Virus record (IMG/VR): IMGVR_UViG_3300035507_000051
Coordinates: 34,311 to 98,310 of that record
DNA from: a virus
Lineage: Duplodnaviria; Caudoviricetes
Length of the DNA: 64,000 bases
Strand: one strand, 5' to 3'
The notes under the pieces are model-generated. The model saw only the letters and a list, made by a program, of their open reading frames with translations. It did no database searches and had not been told where the DNA came from. A program made the translations under genes and the position numbers. Numbering within the stretch: the stretch's first letter is position 1; every line of letters begins with the position of its first letter. Positions 2,809 through 30,770 of the stretch are shown one piece after another.

Positions 2809-5106
2809 ATGAGAAAAAATGGAATAACAATTGTTAATCCTTGGAATAAAGATGCAATAAACTAGCATTATTATGGAATTACTCCAGATAATGTAAATCA
2901 ATATGATTTGGGTGGTGCTTTGCAATTGGCTTAGACTGGCACTTAGCAACTAGCAGATGGAGTCAAGGAATTAAATAATATAGGAGATAAATCCAAATAG
3001 TTAAATAATTAGATACAAAGTTCTAATATATCAGCAACTCAAGCTTCTAGCACTGCAGATTTATTAGCAGAATACAATGCCTATAACCCTTTAGCTAAAG
3101 TTACTTGGAAAGACTTTACAAATAAAGGAGGTATTGGAAGCACATTAACAGACATGGTAGGTAATGGAGTTTAGGGAGCTATGAGTGGAAGCTCTATGGG
3201 ACCAATTGGAGCAATTGGAGGTGCAGGAATAGGTTTAGCTACTGGATTATTTACTAATCTAGCAGCTAAAGCTAAAGCTAAAAGAGAAGCAAAGGCTGCT
3301 AATATAAAAATAGCAGCAGCTAATATTAACAATTAGAGTATATTAGACAATAAAGCTATAGGTTTAGACAACAGAATGCTCAGACAGGATTTAAATAATT
3401 TTACTGGCTGGGAAGCAGCTTATGGTGGGCCTTTAAATAGAGAATTTGGATTTGGGGGAAATATGCTTACTAATGGGTCTGTTTTTTCTACAGGATTGAC
3501 TTTTATAGATACAGGAGGTACTCATGAACAAAATACTAATGGTGGAGTACCTGCGGGAGTTAATCCACAAGATGGAATCCCTAATTAGGTTGAAGAAGGT
3601 GAGGTTATTTATGATGATTATGTATTTAGTAATAGGCTAAGAGTAGCTAAAGAATTAATGGAAAAATATAAACTAAATCCAGAAAATGGGAAAAATCCAA
3701 CTTATGCATAGGCTATAAGAAAATTATCTAAAGAAATTAGTGAAAGGCCTAATGACCCTATAAGTAAGAATGGATTAGAGGCTATAATTAAAGAATTTGC
3801 CTAGTATCAAGAAGAAAAAAGAGCTAAGTAGTAGCAAAAGAAACAACAGTAGCAACAACAACAATATTAGGATCAAGTATTGCTACAACAAATGCAATAG
3901 GCTTAGATGCAATAGGCATAGGAATAGTAGCAATCCCAATTTGTAAATGGTGGATTAGTTAGAAGATTTGATGATGCTGGCTCTTTAGTAGATCCTACTG
4001 AAGGCATCATATATACTCCTGATGAAGGCAATTTACCTGAATTAACCGTGGTTTATACAAGACCCAACACACCTGCTCCAGTGCAAATTTCTGATAGAGG
4101 TCCAATAAATCCGGATACTCCATCTTAGCCTATAGATACTTTTCTAAATTATATTGAGCCATAGACTCCAATTACACCTCTAGTACCTGCTTCTCCAACT
4201 ATAGATCCAAAAGCAAATGCTTTAGAAGTAATAGCAGAAAGAAAAAGTAATCTAGCAGCAGGAAAATAGTATTTTGTTTCAAAGAGAAATCCCTATAAGG
4301 TTCTTACATCTCCTGTAGAATTAGCAACAAAAACTACTACACCAGAAAAGAAGGGAAAAACTTATTAGGATTTTCTTAGATTTGCTCCTGTAGTTAGTCA
4401 AGCGATTTAGGGATTAACAGATGCTTTTGGTTTTACCAATAGGCCTACTTTTAATTTAGGAAAAAGAATACTAGCTGCTAATAATGCAATAAGAGATGTA
4501 GGTACAGAAGCTGTAGGCACTAAACTGGGATATAGGCCTGTAGATTAGTGGGCTGCTATTAATAATTTAAACGCGCAAGCTGCTGCACAAAGGGCTCTTA
4601 TAAGAAACTCGAATAATAGAGTTGGGGCTGCAGGATCCTTATTAGCTGCTGCATACAATTAGAATAAAACTTTAGGAGAACTATATGCTAATATGGAGAA
4701 TGCTAATTGGAGTAGATTAGCTAGTGTAGCTTAGCATAATACAGGAATAGATCAGTCTAATAGACAGGCATTTGATCAAGCTGCTCAATTCAATGCAAAT
4801 TAGGGAGTAAGAAGGGCTGCTAATATGATTACTGCTGCTTAGGCGGATGATGCTGAAGAAACTGCAGCTTATCAAGCAATAGCTAATAATAGAACTAATT
4901 TAGCTAATACTTTAGGAGCTATAGGTAAAGAAAGACTTGAAAGAGGTATGCTAAAAGCTCTAATTAAATCTGGATATGCAGGAACTCCTAACCAGGCTTT
5001 AATAGCTGCATTAGCTAGATATGGTATTAATGTAGGATAGCTTACTACTGGAGCTAAAAATGGTGGTAAACTTAATAGAAAAAAGAAAAAAGGATTGACT
5101 TATTGA
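2809..5106 (+). CDS. Virion cargo/ejection protein (765 aa, TAG=Gln)
   Basis: Frame +1 from ATG 2809 to TGA 5104-5106 with TAG interruptions. Contains a glycine zipper (GAMSGSSMGPIGAIGGAGIGLATG), the crAss cargo-type motif GGTHEQNTNGGV..Q(TAG)VEEGEVIYDDYVFSNRL, and a poly-Q tract. Confidence 0.75.
3829..3939 (+). repeat. Poly-glutamine coding tract mixing CAA, CAG and TAG
   Basis: TAG TAG CAA AAG AAA CAA CAG TAG CAA CAA CAA CAA TAT TAG ... CAA TAG GCT TAG ATG CAA TAG GCA TAG GAA TAG TAG CAA TCC CAA in frame. Confidence 0.85.
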
Positions 5107-5107
5107 T

Positions 5108-6961
5108 ATGGCAAGGATTATACAAAATAATGCACAGTTTAATCCATTCAGTTTTGATGAAATGCTTAAACCAGTAGCTTTATATGGAGAAGCATACAGA
5201 AGTCAAGAAGATGCTTTAGCTGAACTAGAAAATAAATCAGCTGTATGGGATGGATTATTAGATAAAATTAAAGATGCTAAAACTTACAAAAAAGTAAAGA
5301 AATATATAGATGGTATAAAAGCAGCATCAAGTGATTTATCTACAAATGGTTTATCTGTAGGTACTAGAAAAGCCCTACTAAATTTAAAATCTTAGTATGG
5401 TTAGGAGATTGCTCCTATTGATGTCCTATATAAGAAAAGAGCTGAAATTGAATCTGACCAAAGAAAGATGGAAGCTGCAAATCCAACTATAAGATTCAGA
5501 AGAAAAGCTGCAGAAACTAGTTTAGACGATATGTACAATAATCCTACATTAGATTTTGGTGCTAATTTTTCTGGACAAATGCTGCAGGATGATGTGTATA
5601 AAGCAGTAGCTTCTATCAAAACTGCAATGCTTAGAGGAGATAAATTGCAGAGTATTGGATTACCTTTTTAGTATCAATAGAGGTTAGATAAAGGAGCTAC
5701 TCCAGATGAAGTATTTACTGCAATGTTCCAATAGGCCTAGCAAGGAGATCCTAGCACAGTGAAATTTCTACGTTCTATAGTGTAGAATGAGGTAGCTTCT
5801 TCTGGAGTACTAGACTGGAATGATCCTAGTGCAGTTAATTATGCATATACTTGGGCTAATAAAGGTCTTATGGGTGCTATAGGTGAATCTGAAATGAAAT
5901 ACTTTACTGATCAATACAGTATGCAAGAAGCTTTAGCACAGAATGAGTGGAATAAAAAATAGCAAGAAGCTAATGCTGAAGCACAAAGACTGAATGGTAA
6001 TATACCTCTTAATTTTGATGATTTAGTTTCACCATTAGAGGGAGAAAGAGTGCCTGTAGAAATACGAGATTATGAAAATCTACAAAAATTAGGATATGGT
6101 TATGATCCATCTAAGAATAAAAAAGCTGGCTATGTAAGAATAGATGTGGGACCAGCATCAAGAAACAGAGATGCTGCTGGTGGTGACTACAGAAATCAAA
6201 GTATAGATGTTAACTTTTTCTCTAAGGATGGTTTACTTCTATCTAAAAAAAGCGTAATGAGTTAGACTAAAAATACTTAGTATAAGGAGGCTATTGCTAG
6301 AAAATATGATGAGTTTAAGAAGTGGACTGAAAAACACATTACTCCAGTTAATGGCCATTATCCTATGTCTGCTTATAAAAAGTATTACGATGGTCTATAT
6401 GCTAATAAAGTAGAAGGAAGTAAAATGCTTTCTATGGTACAATTAAGATTAGATAAAGATACAATAACAAATATAATTCTGAGTAATGCTCAAAAGACTG
6501 TAAATGGAGGCATTACAGGAATAATGGAAGTAAAAGATTGGAATTCTGATGGATCTATGGAAACAAAAGGTCGCGTTAAATTAAAAACTTTGCAAAATGA
6601 ACTTTCAAAAGAAGATGTTCAACCTTTGCTATATGTCCCAGGAACTGCAGCTACTAGAGGAGTAATTGTAAAGCTAGGTAAAAAGACATATTTAATTCCA
6701 CAAAATGTACTAGGAAGTATTGGAGCTGAAGCTTTTAATATTGATGTTCCCATGCTACAAACTGCATATCAAACTAAGCAAGATTTAATTAGTAGGTATG
6801 GCGAAGATGCTTATTATAAATCTCCTGAAGGACAAAAGCTAGAAGCCACCATTGATTAGGCGGGAGCTGCTTATGTAAGATCTATTACAAATGCACTAGC
6901 TTTTGAATATAAATTAAATCCTTATCAATTAAATACAACAACTGAAAATTCTTTATAGTAA
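5108..6961 (+). CDS. Putative virion cargo protein (617 aa, TAG=Gln)
   Basis: ORFs 5108, 5468, 6050 and 6365 share frame +2 and end at TAG. The gene ends TAG-TAA at 6956-6961, overlapping the next ATG (TAATG). N-terminus FNPFSFDEMLKPV is typical of crAss cargo genes. Confidence 0.7.
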
Positions 6962-9900
6962 TGGCAACTAAAAAAGATATAACTCAGACTGGACCTAAAG
7001 CCCTTAGAGGTATCAGGAATCCAGACCTATATAATCAACAAAGTTTAGGATTGTCCCAAGAACAACTAGACAATCTTCAAAATTTAAATTATAGAGCTAC
7101 TAATAGAAATTTTGAAGTTACACATGGCCATGTTGGATATACAGGTCTTAATAAACCTACTTTCTATGCTCCAGGGATTAACAAGGATGTAGATTATGGA
7201 AGCTCGTCTTATGATAAAGATATTTTAATTAATCCAACTTAGTAGGATGTGCAAGATTATAGGTTTTCAGAACAATCTGGATTAACTCAAGCTCTTAATG
7301 GTGTCTTAAAAGGAACTTTACTTGCAGGTACTACTTTTGTAAATGGTACTGTAGGGTTAGGTATAGGATTAATGCAAGGAATTGCTAATACTATAGATGG
7401 TGATAAAACTACGTCTTTTTGGCAAGGTTTGTGGAATAATCCTATAAATGCTCTTATGACTGAAGTAAATAATAAAGCAGAAGAGGTACTTCCTAATTAT
7501 AGAAGCACAGCATAGAGTGAAGGTCCTTGGTGGGCATGGGATAATTTAACTTCAGCAAATTTCATATTTGATTCATTTGTTAAAAATATGGGATTTACTA
7601 TAGGTGCAGTGTATAGTGGAGGTATCTATACTAAAGCTATTGACGCTGTAGCTAAATTGATAGGTACTGGTAGGATGGGTGCAGCTACTGCAGAAACTAT
7701 AGCAGCTGGAGAAAAAGCTATGGAATCTGCTAGAGCAACTAAAGCTGCTAAAGCCACACTAGGTGCTTTATTAAGTGCCCATGCAGAAGCTACTACAGAA
7801 GCATACAACACCTACACAGATGGTCTAAAATTAGAGGATTAGAAAATTCAAAATAGATTTAATGAAGATTATAGAAAAATTGTTCATGAATTTGAATAGG
7901 CTGGTGGTAAATTTGATTAGAATGGGTATCCAGATCCTAATTCAAATCCTGAAGCTTTTCAAAGAATGCAACAGCAAACTTCATTGGTCAATACTAGAGT
8001 ACAACTAGCTAGAGAAGAAGCTGATTCTAGAATGAGATAGGCTGCCACTATGGATGGTATTTTAAATATCCCTATTCTATGGGTAGATAATTTATTCATG
8101 ATGGGTAAATATTATGCTGGAGGATGGAAAGCTGCTAGAAATGCTAATAAGACTGTAACTAGAGCAACTAAAGAAGCTATGAAAGATGCTAAAGCTGCAG
8201 CTGCTGCTGGTGATATGTCTAAATTAGAAAAACTAAATGAAATTGTAGCTAAAGCAGAAAAAACAGCATATAAAGGACTAACTGCAGAAGAGAGAGCTCT
8301 AGTAGAAGAAGTTCATCCTAGAATGTTAGGTAAAGTGGGAGGAGCTACTAAAAAAGCTCTTACTCCATTTGTTAGAGAAGGTAATGAAGAAATGTCTTAG
8401 GGTGCTGCTTCTCAGGCTAGTATTTACCGCTATGGATTAACAGATGATTAGATTGACAGAATATTTGATGGTAGATAGGATCCTGATGCATAGTTAGAAG
8501 TAAAGGGGTTGCTAGAGTCATTGGTTTATGGTATTGGTGAATTTTATGGAGATCCATAGAATTGGCAAGAGGGTTTCATAGGAGGTTTAACTGGTCTATT
8601 AGGTGTACCTACTTTTGGTAAAAGAGCTAATTCTACAGACCAAACTTACTTAGGTAGAAGTAAATGGATTGGTCTAACTGGAGGTGCTGTATCTGAAGTT
8701 AAAAATTATTTAAAAGAAAGATCAGAACAAGATGCTGATGCTGTTAGAGCTACAGAGGTTCTTAGAAAAGGAAATCTAACTGAAGATCTTAAGCATTTAG
8801 TAGCTCAAACTAAATTTACTAAAGATTAGGAATTTGCTGTTATCCATGATGATGAAAAGGAGTATAAGGATGCTAGAACTGCTGCTATTTTTGAATAGAT
8901 AGCCTATTTAAGAAAAGTAGGAAGAATGGATCTTTTAGAATCTCTCATGAATCAAATGGAAGGATTTACTGAAGAAGATGCTTAGACTATTTTAGATTTA
9001 GCTACTAAAGAAGTTTCTGTAACTGCACCTAATATTCAAGAAAAAGTAAACTAGAAAAAACAGTTAGAATAGGAATTAGAGTAGCTTTTACAATAGAAAG
9101 CTGAAGTAGATAGCTATGGAGCCACTTAGAGAGAATAGCTCCTAATTAATGCGTAGGATGCAGCTAATGAAGATTTAGGAAGTCCTGAAGATAATCGTAT
9201 GGCTTTTGAAATGCTTAGGTAGTTTAATCAGGCAATTAAACAAAAGCAGGACTAGATTGATATTTTAGATTCTGAAATAAGAGAAGCTAAGGCCACTACA
9301 ATATCTCCATATGTGCATTGGGAAGATGGATCAATGTTTTCTAATGAAGAAATTTTACAAGACTTAAATAAAAGAGTTAAAAATGTAAAGAAGATTATTG
9401 ATACTATAAATTTAGCTCAAGACTAGATTGATGAAGCTACTTCAGAAGTATTAACAGATGAACAACTAAATACTCTTACTTGGTATCATGTAATGATGAA
9501 TGATTGGGTTGAAAGATCTGAAGGTATTACTACATAGTGGTAGTCATTAATTTAGAAAATAGTTGATGATCCCCAATTAAAAGCTATACTTGATGCTGCA
9601 GAAGCTGTAGAAGATATACTTAAAGAATCTGGATTAGATTTCAATAGTAATGAGATAAAGTTAGGAGGCAGATTTGATGCTAGTTTAACTTAGGCTAAAC
9701 AATATAAAAAACTACTGGACAATTTAATACAGGCTTTAAATACTGGAGGTATGACAGTAGCTTATCTTTTGACTAGTGAAGATAAGGTTAAAGGTACTGA
9801 TTTAAAAGCAGGTGAATTAATTATGAAGCAATTATAGGCTGTATTAAATACAAATGAATCTATAACTGCAGATGTAAAAGAGAATTTTAATAAAGCCCTA

Positions 9901-12900
9901 CTCGACTTACAAGCAATGGGTAAAAGCCATAGAAGGTATAATGAATTGCTTGATGAGTATCTTAAAAATCCAGAAAAAATTGATGAAGCTCATGCTGCCA
10001 GTACTAAAAAAGCTGAAGAGCAAGCAACTAATAAGAAAAGAGCGGGCATACTACAAAATATAAATTGGGAACAGCCTATTGGTAAAATAGCTAAATAGCT
10101 AGCAGAAAATGCAAATTCTATTCAAGATGCTGGAGGGTTTGACGAGCTTATTAAGGAACTATCTCCTGAAGAGTAGGCTATTGCTGAACAAGTACAAAAA
10201 GCTTTAATGACTTTAGATGCTGTAAATGACCTTATAGATAAATCTTAGCTTACCTAGGAACACGCCAATATTCTAAGAAAACTATTGGATAGGTCAATAG
10301 AGGATCTTGAAGATCCAGAAAATTTGCTAGTAGATTTGCTAGAGCGCTTGAATGATGGTGGAGTCGATGATATAATAGATGACACAGTTCCTGAAGATGC
10401 TGGCATGGATGAAGCTCAGATGATAAAAGATGCTGCAATTTTGGCTATAAATGACTTCTTAGAAGATAACCTAGATGAAATAGTATCTGCTGTAGATGAG
10501 GCAGAAAAAGCTGAATAGAGAAGACAAGAAGAAGAAGAAAAAAGAATGCAAGAAGAAGCAGAAGCATTAGAGAATAAAGAAAAGAGTGAAAATGAGGATT
10601 TGGAGGAACCTGAAGAAAAAGATCCTGCAGATATAGATGATACTATACCTGAAGATGAATCTGAAGATGAGCTTTCTGATCCAATTGAAGACACTACCTA
10701 GGAAATTAAAATTAGAAATAGGTAGGACACTGGACCACAACAAGGCTAGAATTGGGCTAAAGATAGTAGAAGAAGACAAATAAGTTAGTACTATTTACAT
10801 GGAGAAGATAAGCAAGAGCTTCCTGATTATTATGAATAGCATCCAGAATACATACCTAAAGGAGTAGATAAAGAAGCTTTTTTAAAGTATGTAAAGGCCG
10901 TTCATAAATACCTTACTAATAAAGGGGCATATACTTATATTAGTGGAGTAAATTCAGAATATGCACTTAAAGTAGGAGATGATATTGAATTTATTACAGA
11001 TAAAGAGTTAAATGCAGAGGCTGGAGTTACTGTAATTCTAATGTAGGTTACTAATAAAGACGAGTAGAAGCAAATTATTGGCTCTTTAGCTACTTCTTTA
11101 GATTTTCAAACTCAAGACAGGGAAAATGGTAAGACGTTAGCAGAAAAATTTCCAGGAGATAAAGCTTTATATGATGCTCTCGTTAGAGAATTACTAGATA
11201 AAGAAAGTGGAACTGCATCTACTATAACTACTAAAGTAGAAGCACTAAAAGGCGGGTATCCTTCTTTTAGTAAAAATAATAATTCTGTAGCTTCTGTATT
11301 TGGAGATAACCCAATACCAATAGCAATAGTAAAAAAGACCTCTGTAGCTAAATCATCAAATGTTCATGATGATGCTTGGCAATTAGTAGGCAGTAAACCA
11401 GGGCAAGTTTATGTTTATATAGAATCTAATAATGGCATACAAGTTCCTTTATTATGTACCAGCACTGCTTTGAGAGATTTAAGTGAGGATGATTGGTACA
11501 TATAGCAAACCTTAAATGCAGTATTAGCTCTTAAAGATACTGCGCAGTTAGGTAGATTAAAAATGAACTTATTAAAATGGTTGCCATTTTTAAAAAATTT
11601 ACACATCAATATAATTCCAAAAGAAAATAATGTTAAATAGATATTATTTTCTTGGGGCAGTAATGCTGAAGGTAAAAACACTAATTAGTATAGTATCACT
11701 TTAGAAGATGATGGTTCAATTCCTGAATATAAAGCTTTATACTTTATTAAATTTTTAGCTAGAACTAAAATTGAAACTTCTAAAAAAGATAGAGGTGGAA
11801 ATCCTGTTCAAATGTATCCAACTACTAGTGTAGATAGGCTCCGTCTTGATGATGCTGAATATGTAAAAAATATTTCTAGATATATTAAAGTAAATATTAC
11901 TGAAAACACTCCCCATACTATTAATGACTGGTTTACATATGAAGCTACATCATATTAGACAGATAATCAGGCTCATAATAATCCAAATCCAGTAGTTCCT
12001 ACAAATGGAGCTAGAAGAGCTAATCATAAAGTAGATACTCCAGATGGAGAAGTAGAAGTATCTCCTGCAGGTACTGTAAATGATAGTGAAGGTAAACCTT
12101 TAGATGAAGACAAAGAAGCTGCTGCTAGAGAATTCATTAATGACGATTCTACTGAAGTACCAGAAGATTTAGATAATGATGATGATAATGATGCAGAATT
12201 AAGTCCTATAGCTACTAAAAGAAGAACTAAAGGTAGTCTCAACTTAGTAAATATCTTTAGAAGAAGTAGAACTAATAGAACTGGTAAACATCTACTAACA
12301 ACTGATACCTAGGATAATGTAACTGATGAAGAAACTTTAGCTAGTGATGAAGAAAAACTTAGAAAGATGTTTCCTAAATTGGCTGAATAGGGAAGGATAG
12401 TATTAGTGGATGGGCTTATTTCTATAATTGATAATGCAGGAAATCCTAAATAGGCTTATGGTTTATTTAGAAATGGAGTTTTATATATAAGTAAACAAAG
12501 CCCTGCAGGAACTGCCTATCATGAGGCTTTTCACTATGTAATAGATACTTTGTTAAAACAAACAGAAAAAGCTATTTTGTTTAAAGAAGCTACTGAATTG
12601 TTTGGCAATCTAGAAGAACTAGAGTTAGAGGAAAAATTAGCAGAGTCATTCAGAGAATTTATGAATGGTATGCAAGATCCTTCTATTAAAGGTAGATTAA
12701 AATCAATTTGGTAGAATTTAAAACATATAGTTAAATCAATTACTGGTAGAGAATCTTATATGGATAATCTATTTTGGCAAATGTATAGAAATAAAATAGG
12801 TAAAAGGCAAGAAACTCAAGATAATCAAAATACTTATAAAGAAGAATTACTAAAATATAAGCAAGAAAAGCTTAAATATGATAATTTAGATTAGGAAACT

Positions 12901-12990
12901 CAATAGTATATTCAAAAAAGGGGTTTCTCAAAAGTCAATTTTGATGACTTAAGTATAGAACAAAAGGAAAACGTACTTTAGTGTATGTGA
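6961..12990 (+). CDS. Giant cargo/ejection protein with zincin metalloprotease domain (2009 aa, TAG=Gln)
   Basis: Fragments 6961, 7249, 7588, 8050, 9916 and 10285 are in frame +1; stop TGA 12988-12990. Hydrophobic Gly-rich N-terminal segments; TAYHEAFHYV (HExxH at 12520-12534) followed by EEKLAESF. Confidence 0.75.
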
Positions 12991-12996
12991 GTAGAC

Positions 12997-13038
12997 AAAA
13001 AAAAATAAAGGGTAGTACAGTTAATGTACTACCCTTTT
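12997..13038. terminator. Bidirectional terminator between convergent cargo genes
   Basis: AAAGGGTAGTACA-GTTAA-TGTACTACCCTTT with an A-tract on the left and a T-tract on the right. Confidence 0.85.
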
Positions 13039-13043
13039 GTTGT

Positions 13044-16000
13044 TTACTTACTTAAACTTTCATAATATGTTTCCATTTTTTCAGGATGTGCTACCTTTAT
13101 AAAGTTACTTCTCCATGAAGGAACTTCCAATAATGCTTTATATGCAGTACTATGCCCCTTGTATGGCCCACTCTTGATTTCATCCATCCATCTAAATGGA
13201 TTAAGAACTCTTGTTAAATTTACCGTATCTTCAATTACTGAAGTATTTGCTATTGGGCTTTTTAAAATATTAATCATTTCTGTAGGCATTTGAGTACCTA
13301 TAGTCAGAGCTCCTAATTCAGTTCTTTCTCTAAGCATAAGAGCTCTTAGCATTCTTTCTGCCCAACTTCTATCTTTCTTTTTAGATTTATCCATACATAC
13401 ACATAAAATACTAATAGTTAAAAACTATGTTATTTCAGCCAAAGCTCTTTTTATATTAGCTTTTTCATAATCTTCTAGTTGATTCCAATTCCAAAGCAAT
13501 CTTTTTTGACCATCCTCAGTTTCTTGTCTTAAACCTAATAAAAATTTAAATGTAGTTCTGTAGTATCCTTCAAAGTCAGTATCAGCTTCCATACTATGCA
13601 TTTTAGCTCCAAATCTGTATCTAAATTGACTAGGTATCCAATCTCTATACTACATTATAAATCTACCCCACAAATGACGTCTAGCAGCAATAGAGTCTTC
13701 ATCATTATATATACCAAATAGATGCTGATTAACATATCTAATTTTAGCTTCAAATTTAGTTAAATCTTCTTCAGTGAATTCACTACCATCTTCTTTAGTT
13801 ATTCCTTCTTTAAGCACTAATTTATTGCCTAAATCAGGATCATTCTCTTTTATAGGTTTAACTTCTAAAGCATCCCATAGAGATATTGCATTTCCATTAA
13901 CATCCTTTAGTTTATATCTTAAAGACATAGCTATAGCTGTTCTGTTATATAACCAGAAGTCTCCAGCATCTTGCCCTAAAAACTGAATTCTGGGGCCAAA
14001 TAATCTTCCTAGGATAGTTTTATTAATGAAATCCTTATTCTTAATATGCTTTCTAAAATCCTATTTAACATTAAATTTCTGATCAAACAAAGCTAATTTA
14101 CTGTGCATAGTCCTAGAACCTATGTCTCCTACATAAGAAGTTAGAGCAGCAAAGAAATGTTTATCAGCGGATGCTAATTCTCTAGCATTAAACCATTGTC
14201 CTGCAGCTGCTTCTATATTCTACATACCTATACCAGTTAAAGCATTTGCTGCATTTGCTAGTGCATTAAAACCAAGCTATACAGCACTACCTACTTTTAG
14301 CAATAAACCAGCAGCTTTATTTATATCTACTGAAGTATTTTCTGTTACTTTTATTTCCCCGTTATCTACTAAATATTTTTCATATACTTTAGATTCAAAA
14401 AAGTCGTTGAGTAAATTTCCAAAATTACTTTCTTTAGGATCTATAAGACCTTCAGTAGTGTTTGTTCTATCTCCAGCATTGTTACGCCCCACTAATTTTC
14501 TATTACCTTTAGTTTTAGCAATTTTTCTTTTATTCATTACCCAATGTCTTCCAATCTCTAATGGAGTACAAATATCAGACATAGCTGAGTAGTTATAAGC
14601 CATATCAGCATAAGCTATAAGACTTCCTATTACATCATGTGTTAACTGTGAAGTATCTTTACTTTTTACATAATATATAGGTAGCTAAAACACTTCTTCT
14701 GTATCTTGCATACCTACTAATCCATGGTATTGATTGGTATCATCAAAACTTCTAATAAAAGAGGCTTTAGCACCATCTATAATACCCTTAATATTTCCCT
14801 ATTTTATAAGATCTTTAGCTCTTTCTATTGCTGATTTTCTTATTCTAATAGTATTAGTAAGTGTGGTGGTACCTTCAGGTAATAGTAAGTCTAATTGCTC
14901 TTTTAGCTCCATCCATTTATCATAGAACTCTTGCTATATGGTAGTTAAACTAGAATATCTTGAAGGGTATACTTCATGGTTAGGAATCTAAGTTCTTTTT
15001 CCATTAATAACTATGTATTCTGTATTATCCTTTATCCACTTACTTAAAGCTTGAATTTTAGCTTTATATTCCTTACTACCAATCTAAGGATGAGCTCCAT
15101 ACTAATTCTTTAATTCTTGCTCTTTCTATTTATATGCTTTATCATATGCACTTCTATCATAGGAGTAATCTTTCTTATCTATAATAAGTTTGTTAATGTA
15201 TCTTTCATTTCCTTCTTCAAACATAAAATCATAGTTTTTAATGCCTCTCTTTTCATATTCTAAACCTAGAGCAATAATCTACTATGACATATCTATAGTT
15301 TTTAACCTCTGCTGAGTTTTAGCTGCTTTAACAACCTTATCAAAAGACTGCAGTAGTGTGTCTGGATTATCAGCTACACTAGTAAAAAATTTTTGCATAA
15401 AATTCACATCTTTTCCTGCAGTAGCTATCATTTCTTTAGCAGATATAACTTTTAATCCCCCCTTACCATCTTGAATTTTTACAGTATCTCCTACAAATTT
15501 TGTTAAAAATGTAGTAAAAGAATCTAGTGCTTTTTTATAAAATGCGGAATTTAATTCTTGATAAATTGTATTAGTAGTAGACAAAGCATTTAGAATAAAT
15601 TCTTTTGAATTACCTAGGCCATTAGTTGGGTCATGAGCTAATTTTGAGTATGACACATTAGGTCCAATTTCTTCTAGGTCTATTAAATCTTCTAAAAATG
15701 GATTAGCTCCTCTAAATTCTACTCCATCTTTTATTAACTAGTTACCTTCTTTACCATTGTACTTCTCATGCTTAATATTACTTACAGTATATACAGCAGT
15801 TCCAGTATTAGTACCTTTAGGTGCAGGATAATTTACCTTTATAGGAATAATTTTAAGACTTTTAATTTCTATACCATACTTATCTTCTAAAAATTTTTTA
15901 TACAAAGATACCTATCTTGCATATTTATCTTGCTTCTCATCATCAATTTCTCCTCTATGAGTTTTCATATCATAGATGTACCAATTGCCATCTTCATCAT

Positions 16001-18011
16001 ATCCTAATAAGTCTAGAGTGCCTGCTACTCTTACTGTATGAACATGCCCTTTGCCATCAGTAGTATCTACAGTACCTTCAATAGTTACATCTCTAGCAAT
16101 AAGAGTAATTCCATCTCCCTCTATGTCATTTTTTAATTTATTAAGCTAGTATACAAATGCATTTAGGTGTTTTCTATCTACATTAGGATATACTACATCA
16201 AGCTCTTCTCCTTCAACTTTCCAAGTATCGCTATCAGAATCATAAGTAATTCTTCCTTGCATAAAATCTCTTACTAATTCATCTATTCCTGTACCTATAT
16301 TAGTTGATGGTGTTACATAAGGATTTTTGGGATCAAAATTTTTACCTTCAAAATAGGCCTAAATTACTTGAGTAGTTCTCATATATTTAGCACCAGTTTT
16401 GATGTTTATATAATAAGTACCATCGTCAGATAATTTAATTTCTTCCGAGTGCTAAACTATTATATCTGCAATCTATTTTGCAGTTAGGTTTTTAGTATCT
16501 ACTGTAGTTGTGGATTCTAAAGTTCTATAATCTTTTAGTACATCTTCAGAATCTTCTATTCTCATAAATTTTTGGCTTAGAATTACATCGTCTGACATAA
16601 ATTCTTCACCTAAAACATCATATAATTCATTAATTGTAACTCCCCAATTTTTTAAAGCCAAAAGAGCATTCTTAAGAGTAGAAAATTTATCAGATAGTTC
16701 AAGTTCATCTAAGTGCTCTAAAGAGGTAAATAACTATTTGACATCAGCTTGAGCTACATCTAGTAAATCAGAAATTGCTAACATAGTTTCTTCTTTTGAT
16801 AAAGCCACATTAATGTCACTTGTTAGCTAAATTGCCCTCTTTTTTATGTCATATCTCTCTTTTCCATCTTTAGTGTTTTCCCCAAGAGCAGACTACTTAT
16901 GCATTCTAGCAGCAGCATCTCTCACTACTTTAGCTTGGTCTTTAGCTTTTCCTACTAGTGCAAAAAATCTAGCTTCTCTTTTTGCTCTTTCTATATCTTC
17001 TTTTTTAATCTCTTGCTTTTCTGTAATAATATCTTTAGCCAGCACAGATAAGCCTCTTTTAATACTATCTATATTGTCCTAGTAATATGCTGGATTTAAT
17101 CCCTTAAATAAATTTTTAATATAATTTTTAGCTCTAGTAAATATGGGAACTTTAGTATTCTAAGTGTTCATCTAGTTTCTTATCTCAGAATTAAGTTCAT
17201 TCTAAAGCATATGGCCTACAGCTTCTTCAGCAATTAGGGCAGTATCTCCCTAATAAACTTCATAGTAATCATCATACTTATCTCCAAGAATTTCTCTAGC
17301 AGCCTATTCATTTTTTAGATAATTATATGCTCTTTGTACTACGGGCCTTTCTATATATATTCTAGTTAGCAAATGTGCAAATTCTTCAGAAAATGCTTCT
17401 ACACCTTCCATATTATCAGCCAATCTTATTAAGCTAGTAAATTCATTAGCTACAGATTTAGCATGATTAAAATTAGTTTCACCTACAATTCCAGCAGCAG
17501 TTTCTATAGAAGATAAATGAGTTACAGTAACTCCAACTTTACCTAGTATCTTAGATATAGTCTCATTTAACTGATGAATGGCTTTCTAACTATTTGCAAT
17601 TTCTTGATTAGCTTCAGTGTTAGGAACTAATCTTATTGTTAAATTTTTATCCTCGGTATAATCTACTATAGCTATATAGTCATTTTCTTTTTTCTCATTC
17701 ATTTCCATTGCCTCATTTACAAGAATTCCTACATTCTCAATGGTATTCGGCAATTGTTTCATAGTTTTATTAGCCTACTCAAGTATAGTAGATTCTCCTA
17801 TAGCTTTTCTTACAATAGGCAACTTCATTAAACTATTATAAGTAGGGACTCCCTCACTATCTAAAGTGAGGGAATCCTTATAATCGTTTATGAAAGCATC
17901 TGTTACTATTTTATTAAAGATTCTAGATGCAGTAGCATAACCAAAGTTCTTTTTTAACTATTGAAATGTACTTGCACCTCTCTTTGGAATAAATACACAA
18001 GATTTTCCCAT
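13044..18011 (-). CDS. Giant cargo protein with PD-(D/E)xK nuclease and degenerate zincin domains (1655 aa, TAG=Gln)
   Basis: ATG 18011 (MGKSCVFIP); fragments 16661, 15656, 14603, 13928 and 13394 are in the same frame; TAA at 13044. Motifs VAGTLDLLGYDEDGNWYIYDMKT..KYAR(TAG)VSLY and FSEEFAHLL..EEAVG. Confidence 0.75.
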
Positions 18012-18028
18012 AATTTTTAGTTTTTATT

Positions 18029-21000
18029 TTATCTTTTTGGTGGACATAATTTAGTATCTTTATCTTCAGTATCTGGATATTCATCAAGATCTTCTTTTTT
18101 CTCATTAGGAGTATCATCTTCATCTATATCTAGATCTTCAGAATCAGGAGTTTCATCAAAATCTTCTTCTATATTTAATGAATTCTATGCTTCTATAGCT
18201 TCTAAAGCTTCAGCATCTTCTTCTAGTGAATCAGGATCTTCATCTTGAGGATCTTTTAATAGGTCAGGATCACCTAAGTCTGGTTCTGAATCTTCAGGAA
18301 TATTTTCAATTTCTCTCTCATCTTCTAGATCTTTAGGTGCAGTTTCATCAATATCTCCATCTTCTTGAGGTACTCCTCTTTCAAGATCATCACCTTCAGT
18401 TTCTGTGGGATCTTCAAGATCTCCTTCATCTTCTGGAGACTCTTTTTTAGATTTGTCTGAATCTTTATCTTTTTTAACTTCCTTAATGTCACCAAAAGTT
18501 CCTCTTTTAGCTAATTCAGTCCAGTCAATTTCATTATAATTTTTATTCATATTGTAATACGGAATATTAGTAGTATTATAATTACATTTCTCATAAATAC
18601 CCTTATCACTTACTTTTATCCAAAGAGAATTATTTGCTCTTACAAAAGTAGGTAAAACATCAAGCCCTTCAACACTTCCTTGAACTGCTTCTTTGCCATC
18701 TGTAGTCAAATTTAGTTTACCATCTGCTATTACATATAATTTTTGTTTACTATTCAAAAATGTAGTATACTGTGGATGATTAAGTAAGAATTGACACACA
18801 AAATTATAAATATTAAAATCACCATTTTGTAATTTGGCATTACCTTCCTTTAATGAGTCTACAAATCCAGGCAACTGATTAAAGAAAGCTGTAGTAAAGA
18901 AAGTGCCAAAGTTATTGTGACTAAATGCAAGTCCACTGTTGTAATAGCTGTACATAAAAAGATCTCTAATTAAATCTACAATTTCAGGATCTGGAGATTG
19001 CAATAAACTCTCAATATCTTTAACATAGTGCATTCTGTCTTTATTGCTAATTTTACCAACATTTTGCATGAATATACCAATGTTTTCACTTTGAGTAATC
19101 TTTCTAAGTAAGGTATATTTATCTTTTAATTCAGGGTGTGCTTTCATAAAAGAGTAATATTTCATAGGAAAATCATGAATGTAGTAATTTCTTTTATAAA
19201 TCATACTATCTTCAGTATTTTCACCAGAATCTCCAAATTCAGAATAATAGGACAATAAAGCTTGAGTTAATTCATTGCATATTGTTCTAAGAACCAAAGT
19301 GTCTCCTTTACCAGTATATCTATAATGAGTTTGATTTCTAAGTACTTTAATTACATTATGACTAGAATCATTTGTAGTTAGTGCATTTAAATTAGGAAAA
19401 AATCTAGCACTTAAAGTAAGTGCACTTTTAATACCTAAAGTATAGGCAGCTTGTAGTCTGGGTATAGGAGCTTTCAGTATTCTATATCTAAGAGCCTCCT
19501 TACTCATTAAAGTAGCATCCAAAGTTATATCTACAATCTTATCAAGACCTTGTACAGGACTATCTTCTTCTTTAGCATCTGCCATAAAGTCCTGTGCTCC
19601 AAAATACTGTCGAATAACCTCTGGCAAACTAACTTCCAATGCTCCGTTAGTAGAATCAGATCTAGAAACTTTAGATACACTATTCAAAGATTTAGAAAGT
19701 GCTATAATATTTTGAAAAAATACAGCATATTGTGCAGCAAATTGCTGATTATGAGATTTTTTCATTTCCTCTTCAAAAGCTTCTTTATCAGTTCTCATTA
19801 AAGAAACTAGTTCTGCTAATTTGTTAGTGCTAATATTATAACTAGATGCAGCGTATACATTGCCATTATTTAATTTTAAATCTTCAAGTACAAGTTTACT
19901 ATATTCATAAAAATCTTCACTAGTATTTATTAAACCAATAGTTTGAGGATCTAATCCCATTCTAGCAAGTAAACCTATTCTAGTTGCAGTTTTTATATTA
20001 GCACCTATATCACCTAAACAAGGATCTTTACCATTATCTGGAGATGCTGCTTGGAATTCAGCAAGAATTCTACCAATTCTTTCTCCTGATATTATAGAGT
20101 TTTGAAGATCCAAATTTTTAAGTACTATTCCATCAATTTGTACTTGAAATGCAGGATGTATTCCTATATTAGCAAATTGCAATTTATAGTGATTAGATGA
20201 ATTTACTGCAAACATACCAATGAGTGCATTTCCATCCATAAGATTTCTTTGCAAATCAATAGCATCAATTACATCTAGAGGATCTACAGGACTGGCATAT
20301 TTATCATAGAATTCTTCTAGGAATTTAGTATTATCACCTTTCTCATCTGCTCCTATGGAATTTAATGTTGTAAACAAACCATATTTATCAATATCATCTG
20401 CATATTGTTTTTTAAATTCTTTTAAAGCTTTAGGGTTATGCATAATTCTTTGCTGTCTTGAAGCTTGTCTAACTCTATCAAAATTACCGGGTTGCATCAT
20501 TAGTTTAGAACCAGGTCTGCTTGTTAATGTATTCCAAATAACATCAATAAGCATGTTATTTCTAGTTGAAATTCTTTCATTTCTTTTTAATGCTTCCTGT
20601 TTAGATATTTCATCAGTAGTTAAATCATTACCTTCATCATCTACAATCTTAGGTTTAAGAGTATCATACTTAGGAATATCATATTTTATGGATTTACTAG
20701 CGCCTCTAACTGCTAAGAATTCACTAAAGTCTGGATTAAACTTTTCTAGTTTCCTAATATCTTCATCTGTATATCCTTGCTTTCTGTTTCTATAAAGTAT
20801 TCTCCAAAGGATATTGATTTCAGATTTAGTGAGACTAGTCTCTGCTTCTTCCTCTGATAATGCAGCTTCTTGTTCTTTCATGTAAGTTTTAAAGTCTTTA
20901 CCAATCCATCTTTCAAATTCACTAAACAGCGCAGGTTTATAAGTAAATCTTTTAAATTCTCTTACCATTAAGAATAGTTTATCAATGTCAAAGTCAGTAC

Positions 21001-24000
21001 CTGACATTGTAATAATATCAGAAGGTAGCATAATAGAGGTACCAGCAACTACAGGCATAAATCCTACAATTCTAATAGGCATTATGGAGTATTTATCCTC
21101 AGTAGGAATTCTATATCCAATTACCTGAAGTAGCTTTTCAGCTTCTTTCTCACCAAAAGCAGCTTCCATTTTCTTAAAATTAATAGTTTGATATCCTTCT
21201 GGTGTAGTTTCTAAGAAATCTGCATACATTTCTTTACAATATGCTGGAAGATAAGCTTCAATGTACTTTACACCATCAGACATATCTTTACCATTATTAT
21301 AAACAACATGCAGATTATCAGATAATCCAAAATTAGATACAAGCACTGAATTTCCTCCTTTTATTTTCTGCCTTTGTATTGCATTTTTGAATGTAGAAAA
21401 TATAAGAGCTTCAATTTTATTGCTTAAGTTAGGGCTATTAAATGGAAGCATAAATCCAGTACCTTCTTTATTGATTTGTAAAGCTTGTCTTACATCTTCT
21501 CCATATTGTGGATTTCCTTCCATCTTGGTAAATAGCATTTTTTGTAATGAATGAATATCTTGGAATTCATTACTTACTGCACTATAAGCATCGATAAGAT
21601 TATCAACTATAAGAGTATTATAAAACTGAACAGCTTCTTCTCTATTTAAAGTGGTAGGCTTACCATTTAATTCTAAAGTCATTGTAAAGTTTTCAGGAAG
21701 GTCAGCCATAATAATATTCTTAAGCTGAGATCCAAAAATAGCTTCTGCATCAATAAGATGATCATCAGAAGGCTGCACAATCATGTAAGAACTTAATGGA
21801 AATTCTTTAAACATGATACTATTTTCACCCCCTTTAGCTGCATATTGCTGCTCTAAGGATGCAACTACTTCTTCTTTAGTCTTGTAAGCATATTCATTTT
21901 TCTTTTCATTAAAATATTCTTGAGATATTTTTCCATTTTCTAATGCTTGAACTAATTTTCCTATATATTCTTTGTAAGTCTTAATATTTGTATCTCCTAA
22001 AATTTCTACTTTTCCTTCTTTTAAAGCCTTTTCAAATCTACTCTTGTTATAGTTTAAATCAAAAGGTGAATTGAATCCTACTTTAACTACACTATGAAAG
22101 TGTACTGCATCAACTCCATGATCTTCCATAAACTGCTGTAGGCCGAGCAACTTAGGGGATTTATTTAATGCAGTATTTAACATAGAAAATAGTGCAGATA
22201 GCATGTATTCTGAGTTTTTGTGCTGTGTAGTTACTTTTTCCATTCTACCATTAGTAGATACAGCTTCAAAACCATAGAAAAATGGTTTAATTGGATTCCA
22301 CAATGCAAGAAAATCAGCAGCGGTTATAGTTCCTCTTTTGATATTTCTATAAGCATCTTCCATGCTATCAGTCCACTTACCACCTCTAGCTATAAAGATT
22401 TTTCTAAAAGAATCTAAAGATCTAAAAGACTGACCATCAGTACTACAGATTTTTTTGTAAGCTTCCAAAGTACCTCTAATCATACTTTTATCAAACTCAG
22501 TTATATCATCAGAATCCATAAGAAGATTCTTTAAAGATTCAAAAGAATTAGATATGACATCTTCATCTTCTAAATACATAACCTTTTCTATAAGATCTCC
22601 AATGATATTTCCTTGTTCATCTGTTTCTTTAGCAAACAATCTTTCTCCGCAAGCATATGCTTGCTTATTTCTCTTAATATAATCTTGATAACTTTTGTAA
22701 TAAGCTAAGTCACCTCCAATTAATTGTTGAATACTAGCTTGTGCAAGTGCATTATTGTAATAGTACTCAGTTAAATATTCATCAACTTTTTGAAGTTTAT
22801 ATTCAGTCTCTTTCTCATTGACTTCCTCATTATTTTCTTCATCTTGCTCTTCAGTTAGATTTTCTTCAGTTGAGAATAGCTCTTCATTCTTAGCAGCTTG
22901 TTGTGCCATTCTGCCATAGATTTCTAATTTATCTTCAGAAGATAATTTTTCTAGCATTCTAGCAGTTTGCTCTTCTAAATGGTCTTGTAGTATTTTCTTG
23001 AGCTCTTTGTCTCTTCTTTCTTTAAATTCAGTAGGAGACTCATTGCCTTGCATCTTACAAGCTTCTAAAACTATTTCTGCTTTAGTTTTACCATCTACAG
23101 TTTCAGAATTTAACCAAGGAAAATATGTAAATGTGGCTCCTTTACTTCTTTTGTCATTGTAGTTTTCAATTTCTACTTGATTTTCTTTTTTATTCTTGAC
23201 ATCATTAATTCTATCAACTTCTTGAAGTAGATTCTTTACCAGTCTATTAAGAATTTCTCCTTTGTAATTATTTCCAGTAAATCTTCTACCTTTTAGCATT
23301 ACTATAGCATCAACATCAGAGAAAGAAGGGCATGCATAATATCCATAATGATTACCATAAGTGTCATCATTAGCAGCCATATACGCATGGAATCTGCCAA
23401 CCAATTGCATCTTAGCATCTACATTTTGTACACTATTTTTATCCTCACTTCCCATAAAGCTCAGCATATTTACATAAGCAAAGCTTTTTCTAAATGCATA
23501 GTCATTAGTTGAGTCATCCCAATCTTCTAGCCATGAATTTGCCCATCCTATAGGTTCTCCTTTTGCATTTCTTTCTCTAAAGAAGTCAAAATTACCATAG
23601 TTTTTTGCAATCCATTCATTAGCATATTCTAAGTTATCAGTATTTTTTACAATATCTACTAAATCTGAAATAAAATCAGGAGCAGTATAAGTAGCTCTAG
23701 TAACTCCATTATGTCTAAAAGTCATAGTTACATATCCTTCAGAGGCTAAAGTAAGAGCTCCAGCCATAGCTAAATAAGCTCCCTGGAAATCAGCAAGAAG
23801 GTTACTGCCTTTACCGTATGTTACATTTCCTGTTTGATTTACAATGATACTAATGCAGTTTAATATAGTGACTAATTTTTTTATTTGATCATTAGATATA
23901 AGTGTAGCAATATCATCAAGCCCTTTTACTTCTTCTAGGGATTCTTCATCTATATTAGCAAAATCACCAAACAATGAATCTAAATTCATACTGTTAGTAT

Positions 24001-26470
24001 CTACACCTACATCATTAAGTAACCTTTCTAGACTTAATCTACCGAACTTTTTATCAAAGTGGTCATCTAAGCCCATAAGTAGATCCATTACTTTTTTAAT
24101 TTCTGCTACAGTAGCTGTGCCATTAAGGTAAGAATTTAATCTATTTATACACCACCCAAAAGGTTGTCTATTATAAAGTTTAAAATGAATTCTTTTTCTT
24201 CTTTGTGCTGCAGTTTCATTTGCAGGTATTAAAGTCTTATCATCTTCAGCATACGCGGCATTAAACCATTGGTCTAGTTTTGCTAAATGTCTTAAATCAG
24301 CCTGGCCTGTAGCATCATATATAGAATCAATTCCTAATACTAATTTACCTTCATAGTTTGCTTTAACATTAGCTAGCAAATCTGCACTAGAGGTACCTCT
24401 ATTTAAATATTTTAGTAAACCTCTTTCACTAATCATAGCACTTGGTACTTGAGCTCTTCTCATAGTAGAATAAAACTCACTTCTAGTATTTGGATCCCAA
24501 GCTTGAGGATTCTCTGGATTATAAACTAGAATATCCCTAAGATCGTATAACCAAGGATATTTTTCTATAGTTTTATCCAAAGTTTCAACAAACTGGTCTT
24601 CATTTTTCATAGAAGAAAATTCATCAAGCAGAATTCTATATGCAGTTAAAGCATCCATTCTAACTTTACCTCCAAGATCATCAAACACATAATGCATAGG
24701 ATTTTTATAATCTCTTTTAAAAAGAGAACCTAAAAGAGTTTTTATGTTAATAGATAAAGTTTTTGCTGGATCTAGTAGTTTATACTTAACCATATACCCT
24801 TCCCTATTAGCATTAGGCTGATCCTCTCCATTATTTTCTGTATTTTCGTCTTCAGAGGCAATAACAGGCACTGTATCAAAGCTTAATTTAAGATTTTCGT
24901 TAAATTGAATCTCCCAAGCAGCCTCTTGACACAAAGCTACATATACATCAGGTTGCATCATTTGACTATAAGCTTCTACTAAGTGCTGTGCTCTAACTTT
25001 AGCTGCCTCTTTACCTCTTTTTGTCCACTTTATGATTTCACCATCTGCTTCATCAGTAAAAACTTGTACATATACTTTTTTTACTCCATCAGTATAGTCA
25101 TTTCTACATTGTATTTCTTGAATAAAATCAGCACCTTCTTCAGTCTCTGGACTCATTAAAGTTTTTACTAATCTATTCATACCTTCTTGAGTTTTGCAAT
25201 CTTCAACAGTATCAATAAATCTTTTTTGAATTCTATTAAAAATAGCTTCTCCTAAAGGTTTTCCTTCATACTTAAATGCACCTAAAGCGTAAACCCTTTG
25301 TGCTGCTTTATCTCCTCTGGTTAATCCCCTATAATGAGCTTCTTCTACTGCATTTCTATCTTTTAAATTAGTATAATACTCTCTAAGATCCTCTAGCTCA
25401 TAATCAAGTTCTCTAGAGAAAGCTGAACTAATGTAGTGCTCTCTAGCTAATCTTTGCTCAATGTCAGGAAATACTTTAGAAAGTAGAGAGAAATCTTCAG
25501 TGTCTATAACTATTGGATTTAAATTAGGCCTTTTTGCATTTAAACTATCCAGTAGTTCTTTCTGCTTAGCTTCAGCCTTTTTTATAGCTGCTTCTTTTCT
25601 GGCTATAGTTTTAACGTTTTTAGCTCTTTTATTTAACTTTTGGATTTTAATATCTACTCCTCCATCTTTATTTGGGGAATACTGAGCTTGTATGCCCAAT
25701 TGTTTATCTAGCATATCTAACAAGGCATCTGCAAATCTTTGTGGAAGATGCACATTTGGATCTGTAATAATTTCAGGAAATTGAATTTTAGTATATTTAT
25801 TATTAAGCAAAAGCTGTTGTATTCTTGCAATAGCTCTTTTATTTGCTTCTATAAATATTTCTAAATCTTCATCAGTATCTTCAAAATTATCAACCTCCTG
25901 CTTAAAAGTACCATTTACATTCTGATGATTTTTACTTAATACAAGACCAATTACATTCTTATTTAGATTTTTATTGCTATCAGCTATAAGAAATAGTCCA
26001 TATCTTTTATCATTAGTAGATAATGTAGTACCATCTTTTACCTTAATAGTATCGCCAAGCTTTTCACCTGTAACTGCATTATCCGCTTGTAAACTGTAAC
26101 CAGTTACAAATATAGTGTTAGGTGAAGTTCTTGGAGATCCTTTACTAGCTGTTCCTATACTAAATGTAGCATCTCCTAATTTGGTATTTTCTAAAGCTGC
26201 TTTAACTTCTGCCTTTGCTACTCTTGCTTTTGATATAGCTGAATTAATTAGATGTAAATCACCTTGTCTTGCTTTTTTCATAATGGCTTCTTGTGTTAGG
26301 TTGGTATCTGTCATTATACTAGTTATAACTGCCAATACTTCTTCAGAAGTAAGTCCTTTAGTTTCTGTTCTAGCCTATACAGCACCTAGAACTTTTCTCC
26401 TAAAGGCTAACTATTCGTTAATTTCCTTTGTAGTATTTTTATTTACTACTGCACATTTTTTACTATTCAT
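18029..26470 (-). CDS. Virion-encapsidated single-chain DNA-dependent RNA polymerase (2813 aa with TAG read-through)
   Basis: GYRIPTEDKYS and SGTDFDIDKLF (DFDID at 20981-20995) are catalytic motifs of crAss-like RNAP. The 2716-aa ORF extends in frame to ATG 26470 through TAGs at 26413 and 26377, and to TAA 18029 through a TAG at 18187. Confidence 0.9.
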
Positions 26471-28633: not shown

Positions 28634-28813
28634 TTACAGCTTAAATATTTTATCAACCATTTCTTCATTACACCATAGTTGTAATACATTTATACTACTA
28701 TAAATACATAGACCTAATCCTGCCTTGAAATTATCTACGCATACCATGTAAGAACCTACAGCTATAACTGCTATATGGATTAGGGTTAAAATTATTATAA
28801 GTTTCCAGCTCAT
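28634..28813 (-). CDS. Small membrane protein (59 aa, not in ORF track)
   Basis: ATGA overlap with the thioredoxin stop; MSWKLIIILTLIHIAVIAVGSY.. with two hydrophobic segments. Confidence 0.5.
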   Translation of the reverse strand: MSWKLIIILTLIHIAVIAVGSYMVCVDNFKAGLGLCIYSSINVLQLWCNEEMVDKIFKL

Positions 28814-29052
28814 TTTGTTAATTCTTTTAGTCTATCTAATGGAGTAATGCCAGGCAATTTAGTAGCTACATTGTTATCATCTAATATAACTAGAGTAGGA
28901 ATAGATCTAATTTTATATTCATCAAGTAAATCAGCATTAGCATCATCATTAATATCTACATTTACTATATCTACTCCTTCTAGTTCTTCTAGAATTCTGC
29001 CTTGCTGTTTACAAGGACCGCAAGTCTGTGAATAAAATTTAAGTATTTTCAT
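28810..29052 (-). CDS. Thioredoxin/glutaredoxin-like protein
   Basis: FYSQTCGPCK active site and IRSIPTL cis-Pro motif. Confidence 0.9.
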   Translation of the reverse strand: MKILKFYSQTCGPCKQQGRILEELEGVDIVNVDINDDANADLLDEYKIRSIPTLVILDDNNVATKLPGITPLDRLKELTK

Positions 29053-30163: not shown

Positions 30164-30770
30164 TTAATGTATCCAGTGAGATCCTTCAGAAGCTTCTGCA
30201 GGTATAGGTAAGCTCTTACAAAATATTCTTGTAGTTTCTTCCATAATATCTTCAAGTATTTTAGCAATGCCTAAATTCTTAGGATATTCTACACATATTT
30301 CATCATGTACAAAATTAACAATCTTTACTTTATCAAAGTATCCATTATTAATAATATAATCAAATAGTTTTTTACCTGCTACCTTTAGACAAATAGCTCC
30401 AGTTCCTTGTGTCACAGAATTTAATGCTTTTCTGTCCCACTTAGAACCTACTCTGGCATGATGAGCTACCTTCTTACAAACTTCATCATTAGTTCCTTTA
30501 TGATTTATTCTATAATCATTCCAAAATTCTTGAGTAAAACTCTTTTGTTCTTCAATCCATTTATCCCAATCCCACCAATAAGTTTTATGGCCTGTTATAG
30601 GATTAAGGACTATGTATCCGTGAGTTCTAACAAACTTAGAGCCTTTCTTCTTAAATTCTGCAATACCATTAAAACCATTTATATAAGCATTAGCAAAGTT
30701 TGTAGCTTCTTCAATGCTACATCCCATACTATTTCTAATAGCTTCAGCTGAACCTCCAAATTGTTGTGAG
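30164..30770 (-). CDS. polA: DNA polymerase family A, exon 2
   Basis: After splicing, motif B reads RSKAKPVEFSQQFGG; also NSVTQGTGA and motif C FVHDEI. Exons total 2103 nt = 700 aa plus stop. Confidence 0.9.

Follow-up and report, generated by a model that had tools for sequence, protein, structure and literature searches.

Terminal cysteines on three giant cargo proteins of crAss-like phages suggest a head-to-tail tether

The closest described relatives of the proteins considered here are cargo proteins of two crAss-like phages, crAss001 (gp47, gp50 and gp49) and phi14:2 (gp078, gp077 and gp076). The crAss001 proteins are present in the particle and were assigned to a cargo zone in the capsid, where cryogenic electron microscopy (cryo-EM) left them unresolved (PMC10172136). 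The phi14:2 proteins were detected in virions in a study that also noted fusion of the three block proteins, and in which the polymerase among them was handled in dithiothreitol (bioRxiv 10.1101/2020.03.07.982082). That polymerase is called gp66 in the structure paper (PDB 6VR4) and carries the GenBank tag gp077. A 2026 paper still counts crassvirus ejection proteins as unresolved. Here, we analyze the corresponding genes in a stretch of 64,000 nucleotides (the window) from a tailed phage, positions 34,311 to 98,310 of IMG/VR record IMGVR_UViG_3300035507_000051. They encode a zincin-type protein (Z), a virion-type RNA polymerase (R) and a protein with a nuclease domain (T), and in these proteins and their relatives paired terminal cysteines (Cys) follow a rule that suggests a tether.

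The genes for Z, R and T are homologous to those of crAss001 and phi14:2, lie in the same neighborhood and encode the same four terminal Cys; unlike those two phages, the present phage reads TAG as glutamine (Gln). Natural fusions (p-crAssphage gp44, R+T; cr55_1 gp070, Z+R; L168, Z+R+T) hold the same domains in the same Z-R-T order. Their joints are peptide bonds and the matching Cys are absent, whereas the joints of the present phage would be Cys-Cys. Another parallel is the ejection operon of N4-like phages (Schitoviridae), which comprises a giant virion RNA polymerase and two ejection proteins that are packaged and ejected together. Cys is strongly suppressed in these ejected proteins (PMC11445570). 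The crAss-like cargo shares this N4-type avoidance, except at the joints; the N4-like system is single chain and lacks the terminal Cys rule. Within the crAss-like polymerase cargo block, Z, R and T are unremarkable members; what is new is the terminal Cys rule, of which we found no mention in the crAss001 atlas, the phi14:2 polymerase preprint, the N4 and DEV ejection papers or full-text searches.

When TAG is read as Gln, Z, R and T are three giant open reading frames (ORFs; Table 1), with T starting 17 nucleotides past the R stop codon. Z ends in ..VLQCM and has two Cys in all, at residues 1499 and 2008, the latter being second-last. R starts with MNSKKC and ends in ..KLCPPKR, and its 16 Cys include C6 and C2809 (fifth from the end). 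T starts with MGKSC and has four Cys, at residues 5, 1148, 1537 and 1539; its last 116 residues are Cys-free. Both outer ends, the N-terminus of Z and the C-terminus of T, are without Cys. An earlier note on this DNA had described this pattern, and ORFs, ends and codons checked under the recoded reading were exactly as it stated. All four Cys lie 2-6 residues from the ends that would face a neighboring protein. Given the Cys counts of the three proteins, the chance of finding Cys no more than seven residues from these four ends is 1.8e-7, or 2.7e-6 if any four of the six ends are allowed. Overall Cys frequencies in the window are 0.10% for Z, 0.24% for T and 0.57% for R.

The setting of three of these ends was considered further. 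Aspartate and glutamate make up 42% of the last 168 residues of R, and its acidic tail, about 150 residues long, has Cys2809 at the tip. In AlphaFold2 models built on 18-sequence alignments, Z Cys2008 comes directly after the final helix in a small helical module that is modeled with confidence (predicted local distance difference test [pLDDT] 77-96 over the last 50 residues), and R Cys6 falls within residues 1-9, which are unstructured (pLDDT <50) and precede the first helix. The models would thus leave R Cys6 accessible in a loose tail and Z Cys2008 at the edge of a folded module, which we count in favor of a link.

To describe conservation, we surveyed about 74 non-redundant lineages (19 + 55) at 20-50% identity, drawn from Steigviridae (crAss001, IAS virus and phi14:2 among them), Intestiviridae, Suoliviridae, Crevaviridae and Flavobacterium phage Fpv20. 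Loci were collected by alignment-based scans of IMG/VR, as single-protein scans returned near-identical relatives only. All four Cys are present in IAS virus and crAss001, and also in four IMG/VR relatives at 44-48% identity, none of which is recoded. For the Steigviridae layout, in which Z is inverted, an alignment-based scan gave 80 loci that reduce to 19 non-redundant lineages. The Cys is found at the Z end in 19/19, at the R start in 16/16, at the R end in 18/18 and at the T start in 19/19, and at the outer ends in none (Z start, 0/19; T end, 0/19). Among the 55 further non-redundant loci, all 35 boundaries between Z and R and all 14 between R and T have Cys on both sides. None of 10 outer N ends carries one. 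Of the outer C ends, 1 of 49 scored does, which is effectively 0/48, because the lone hit (L167) is a separate R that is cut by the contig end and was misclassified as a fusion. Such a Cys occurs in 9-15% of the background ORFs of the same loci.

These proteins otherwise avoid Cys. In the 55-locus set, the Cys frequency of the block is 0.18%, as compared with 1.73% in background ORFs, a tenfold depletion that places the block far below background, as in N4-type Cys-suppressed ejection proteins. The terminal Cys is frequently the sole Cys of a protein of 1,300-4,500 residues. The marine phage phi14:2 has four Cys in 5,398 residues: the last residue of Z, C3 and C2179 of the 2180 residues of R, and C3 of T. 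In crAss001, gp47 (2341 amino acids [aa]) has one Cys, third from the end, gp49 (1349 aa) has one, C5, and gp50 has three, namely C5, C1334 and one ninth from the end. In alignments of the C-terminal 250 aa of Z (A4) and the N-terminal 300 aa of R (A5), each with 18 sequences and 19-25% mean column identity, no column other than that of the terminal Cys is invariant.

The exact positions of the Cys were also tallied. Among 35 lineages, Z has its terminal Cys at the second-last residue in 30 and R has its first at residue 3 in 24; among 14 lineages, that of the T start occupies residue 5 in 12. Apparent exceptions at the R start are artefacts of taking the first ATG; the true start, M-S-C, lies 14-28 codons downstream, and all corrected R starts read M-x(1-5)-C. 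Lysine or arginine directly follows the Z-end Cys in 54% of cases as compared with 13% in the background, and the R start is not enriched. We had considered this enrichment as evidence of thiol reactivity and dropped it as too uneven between ends.

Fused genes offer a natural counterpart to the separate ones. Z, R and T are collinear in that order in phi14:2, Intestiviridae, Suoliviridae and Crevaviridae, and Z is inverted only in the group of crAss001, IAS virus and the window. R+T fusions occur in p-crAssphage (gp44), cr8_1, cr3_1, cr127_1 and about 25 non-redundant IMG/VR loci. In these genomes, Z has its Cys at the last to fourth-last residue and the fusion starts with M-x(1-5)-C, and the fused protein lacks Cys at its C-terminus and shows no conserved one around the junction. 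Conversely, Z+R fusions (cr52_1, cr55_1 [gp070], cr4_1, cr7_1, Fpv20, L218, L259 and others) lack the N-terminal Cys and have none within hundreds of residues of the junction, and both the R-end and the T-start Cys are kept. In Fpv20, gp33 (4419 aa) has a single Cys, second-last, which faces gp34 (starting MAC). A complete Z+R+T fusion of 5,642 aa (L168) has zero Cys, as does a 3,998-aa fragment of a second triple fusion (L251). At locus L202, the boundary lies elsewhere in the block and a Cys pair is found there too, with exactly one Cys per protein. The number of terminal Cys is always four, two or zero, tracking the number of internal boundaries. Junctions within fused proteins were placed only roughly, from the positions of HExxH and DFDxD motifs. 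For finer mapping, phmmer gave one usable hit, a hidden Markov model of the T N-terminus found nothing significant, and local alignments of the terminal modules were at noise level.

The earlier note had expected the four Cys to be conserved in homologs and to be lost where genes are fused, and had proposed the chain order Z, R, T. The first expectation is borne out across the surveyed relatives. Each type of fusion is without exactly the pair belonging to its junction, and the proposed order equals both the collinear gene order and the domain order of all fusions. We regard the interpretation in the note as supported in part.

Because the number of Cys follows the number of boundaries, the outer ends carry none and the triple fusion has none, the Cys appear to have one job, that of joining pieces. 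Pairwise joining in the order Z-R-T is the simplest reading that these data support. We consider it probable that the four terminal Cys form two inter-protein links, one between the Z end and the R start and one between the R end and the T start, and that these are most likely disulfides. That each end has a single conserved thiol and no further conserved ligand argues for a disulfide rather than a metal site. Since the Cys lie so close to the ends, the stubs beyond them would be only a few residues long and the joined chain almost linear. In the mechanism that we envisage, the disulfides would form after Z, R and T have been packed into the particle, so that three separate proteins would become a single chain, nearly linear and about 6,500 residues long, with the topology of natural crAss-like polyproteins. 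The chain would hold the three at 1:1:1 through packaging and may thread them sequentially through the tail; in the cytoplasm, host thiol reductants would then sever the joints and set the polymerase free. The disulfide nature of the link and its role in co-packaging, threading and release by reduction are our inference. More tentatively, with somewhat less confidence than an even bet would call for, we suggest that the injected "polyprotein" is assembled after translation, with redox-cleavable Cys-Cys joints in place of peptide bonds, such that host reduction times the release, and perhaps the activation, of the polymerase.

The evidence for pairing would be identical if facing Cys were joined by a metal ion between two thiolates, or by other thiol chemistry. 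Metal bridges were allowed in the earlier note too, and an anoxic habitat and a reducing cytoplasm both disfavor disulfides. However, each end offers one conserved ligand, and two-coordinate zinc or iron sites are rare and weak. A single site of four Cys was rejected, because many genomes keep only one pair. Structural disulfides are present in crAss001 virions (PMC10172136), and a metal joint is in our view unlikely. Those crAss001 bonds are inter-subunit bonds of the tail and portal vertex, so crassvirus particles do carry such bonds; what they join are tail, ring and portal-vertex (gp57) proteins that are ordered and visible by cryo-EM, and not the cargo, which is unresolved there.

It is slightly harder to credit that the link forms only during infection, with Cys that stay reduced in the capsid, become oxidized in the host periplasm and lock the ejected proteins in the envelope. 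The suppression of Cys seen in ejected proteins of phages has been attributed to their transit across the oxidizing periplasm (PMC11445570), and the retained Cys would then be those meant to react there. Yet R has to reach the cytoplasm for transcription, and the fusions represent a functional, permanent covalent chain made before packaging.

Equally doubtful is the idea that each terminal Cys acts alone at a free chain end, in virion attachment or as a processing or redox signal, and that pairing is a by-product. Some other cargo-type proteins do carry a lone terminal Cys with no evident partner, such as p-crAssphage gp47 (L083 4976-7549, 857 aa), whose only Cys is second from the end (..KQSCR), and cr8_1 gp90 (L085 2460-6008), which starts with MTKKC. 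Solitary action is, however, difficult to reconcile with the Cys-free outer ends, with terminal Cys numbers that always match the boundary count and with the moved boundary of L202, which carries the pair along. The triple fusion does without any Cys, so an outside partner seems unneeded. Chance or gene-calling error, which might be suspected because some first-ATG starts are misplaced, is refuted by the survey, given a window-level probability of about 2e-7, a rule that holds in all the lineages examined and corrected starts that all conform. An RNA-level or translational-coupling cause of the conserved TGY codons was likewise rejected, because in Steigviridae Z is encoded on the opposite strand and at a great distance from the R start.

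Several points weigh against the proposed links. In the present phage the proteins are not Cys-free, as R has 14 internal Cys and T has three. A Cys that merely needs a free chain end would likewise be expected to disappear where genes are fused, since a fused junction is no longer one. Moreover, a quick maximum-likelihood tree of 64 polymerase cores, partly unresolved, has at least three state changes at the Z-R boundary and at least two at the R-T boundary, so the argument from fusions draws on a handful of independent events, not dozens. In cr273_1 gp35 (L089 6741-24125), the R-end Cys is 50 residues from the C-terminus, the largest offset seen, in a low-complexity tail. Synthesis of the proteins takes place in a reducing cytoplasm and the phages inhabit an anoxic gut, conditions that disfavor disulfides. 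Finally, the bond itself is inferred from sequence, and a crAss001 study with reduced and non-reduced virion samples mentions no such link, though it was not looking for one (PMC10172136).

The recoded reading of the window is supported by the frames of Z, R and T, which are open only under that code; under the standard code they fragment, with the sole exception of one long ORF across the TAG-free polymerase core. It is also supported by the TAG columns of T, which in non-recoded homologs are chiefly Gln (67/192 cells), and by a tRNA with anticodon CTA encoded in the 98,310-bp genome.

Identities of the three proteins were predicted from homology and motifs, at only about 26-35% identity to the cultured crAss001 and phi14:2 counterparts. 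R, a giant single-chain protein with a DFDID catalytic motif, matches IAS virus by tblastn at 34.7% identity over 83% of the protein (E = 0), crAss001 gp50 at 2e-98 and phi14:2 at 7e-11. A profile of the catalytic region (A3), which includes R and of which phi14:2 is itself a member, matches PDB 6VR4 at 2e-118. We therefore assign R as a predicted crAss-like virion RNA polymerase of the phi14:2 gp66 type. Z has an HEAFH zincin-type motif toward its C-terminus and, by motif, homology and synteny, is a predicted zincin-domain cargo protein of the crAss001 gp47 type. A segment of T matches Pfam PF12705 with 24.5 bits against a cut-off of 22, and T also matches PHROG exonuclease families; it holds a predicted PD-(D/E)XK nuclease superfamily domain. 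Z and R matched no family in Pfam or PHROGs searches, and with phmmer none of the three proteins matched a PDB sequence. All three are probably packed and injected by the present phage.

Several further observations concern these proteins. TAG accounts for three of the 113 Gln codons of R (3%) as compared with 31-48% in adjoining late genes. The three are codons 20, 32 and 2762, a placement with a chance of about 2.7e-5; they flank the TAG-free core and so gate both Cys-bearing ends. In two recoded crAss001-like relatives (L050 and L073), R and T are without TAG and Z has 26-27; in L073, one TAG lies within a non-coding ORF flank. At six loci (L010, L013, L028, L041, L070 and L073), the R ORF is broken by an insert of about 0.8 kb. 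Unlike true gene boundaries, the flanking R halves have no extra Cys at the break, which is more consistent with a self-splicing insert than with a split gene. In the Z homologs of the IAS-like loci L002 and L009 (A4), HExxH is replaced by IRHYN and TRAYN and the C-terminal Cys is kept, so the tether rule is independent of an intact zincin site.

Neighboring genes are included in Table 1. Two cargo-type ORFs that precede Z, of 765 aa and 617 aa, are both Cys-free, and the counterparts of the latter, crAss001 gp46 and IAS gp059, also have zero Cys. The TAG-free replication module encodes a thioredoxin that probably serves nucleotide reduction; thioredoxins are also encoded by p-crAssphage and cr8_1. 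A family-A DNA polymerase is divided into two ORFs with an HNH endonuclease ORF between them.

Table 1. Features of the locus; positions are those of the window unless marked as genome positions (C1)
Feature	Position	Strand	Remarks
tRNA, anticodon CTA (amber suppressor; ARAGORN label Pyl)	C1:6121-6193		Outside the window (C1:34311-98310); within a cluster of nine tRNA genes
Cargo-type ORF	2809-5106	+	765 aa; 31 TAG
Cargo-type ORF	5108-6961	+	617 aa; 12 TAG
Z, zincin-type cargo protein	6961..12990	+	2009 aa; homolog of crAss001 gp47 / phi14:2 gp078
Z HEAFH motif	12520-12534	+	Residue 1854
Z Cys2008 codon (TGT)	12982..12984	+	Second-last residue; invariant in A4
T, PD-(D/E)XK-bearing cargo protein	13044..18011	-	1655 aa; homolog of crAss001 gp49 / phi14:2 gp076
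T match to PF12705	15870-16124		Residues 630-714
T Cys5 codon	17997..17999	-	N-terminal end, facing R in the model; invariant in A1
R, virion-type RNA polymerase	18029..26470	-	2813 aa
R acidic, probably disordered C-tail	18032..18490	-	About residues 2661-2813; disorder from composition only
R Cys2809 codon	18044..18046	-	C-terminal side, facing T in the model; kept wherever the T gene is separate
R TAG codon 2762	18185-18187	-
R DFDID motif	20981-20995		Residues 1826-1830
R TAG codon 32	26375-26377	-
R TAG codon 20	26411-26413	-
R Cys6 codon	26453..26455	-	N-terminal end, facing Z in the model; invariant in A5
Thioredoxin	28813-29052	-	80 aa; CGPC motif; Pfam PF00085, E = 3e-11
Family-A DNA polymerase	30167-33149	-	In two ORFs
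DNA polymerase, last part	30167-30727
HNH endonuclease ORF	30777-31466
DNA polymerase, exonuclease and first part	31635-33149

The nearest working analogy to the proposed tether is the single interchain disulfide of bacterial A-B toxins, which are unrelated proteins. The interchain disulfide between the heavy and light chains of clostridial neurotoxins functions while the toxin translocates and undergoes reduction in the cytosol. As in such linked, translocated proteins, the crAss-like cargo has conserved, paired Cys on facing chains. A single nicked precursor gives rise to the toxin chains; the crAss-like chains would be separate gene products joined head to tail. In the toxins, one disulfide joins two chains (PMC6899712).

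Among phages of the human gut, crassviruses are the most abundant, and they have to deliver three giant proteins, about 700 kDa in total (262.5, 276.9 and 154.5 kDa in crAss001, about 690 kDa together), via a narrow tail. If true, the tether would give a concrete model for both the order of ejection and the stoichiometry of the cargo, and for why the genes fuse and split freely. It would also suggest how a self-inhibited polymerase might be released, and would be a rare example in which single disulfides string the products of separate genes together head to tail.

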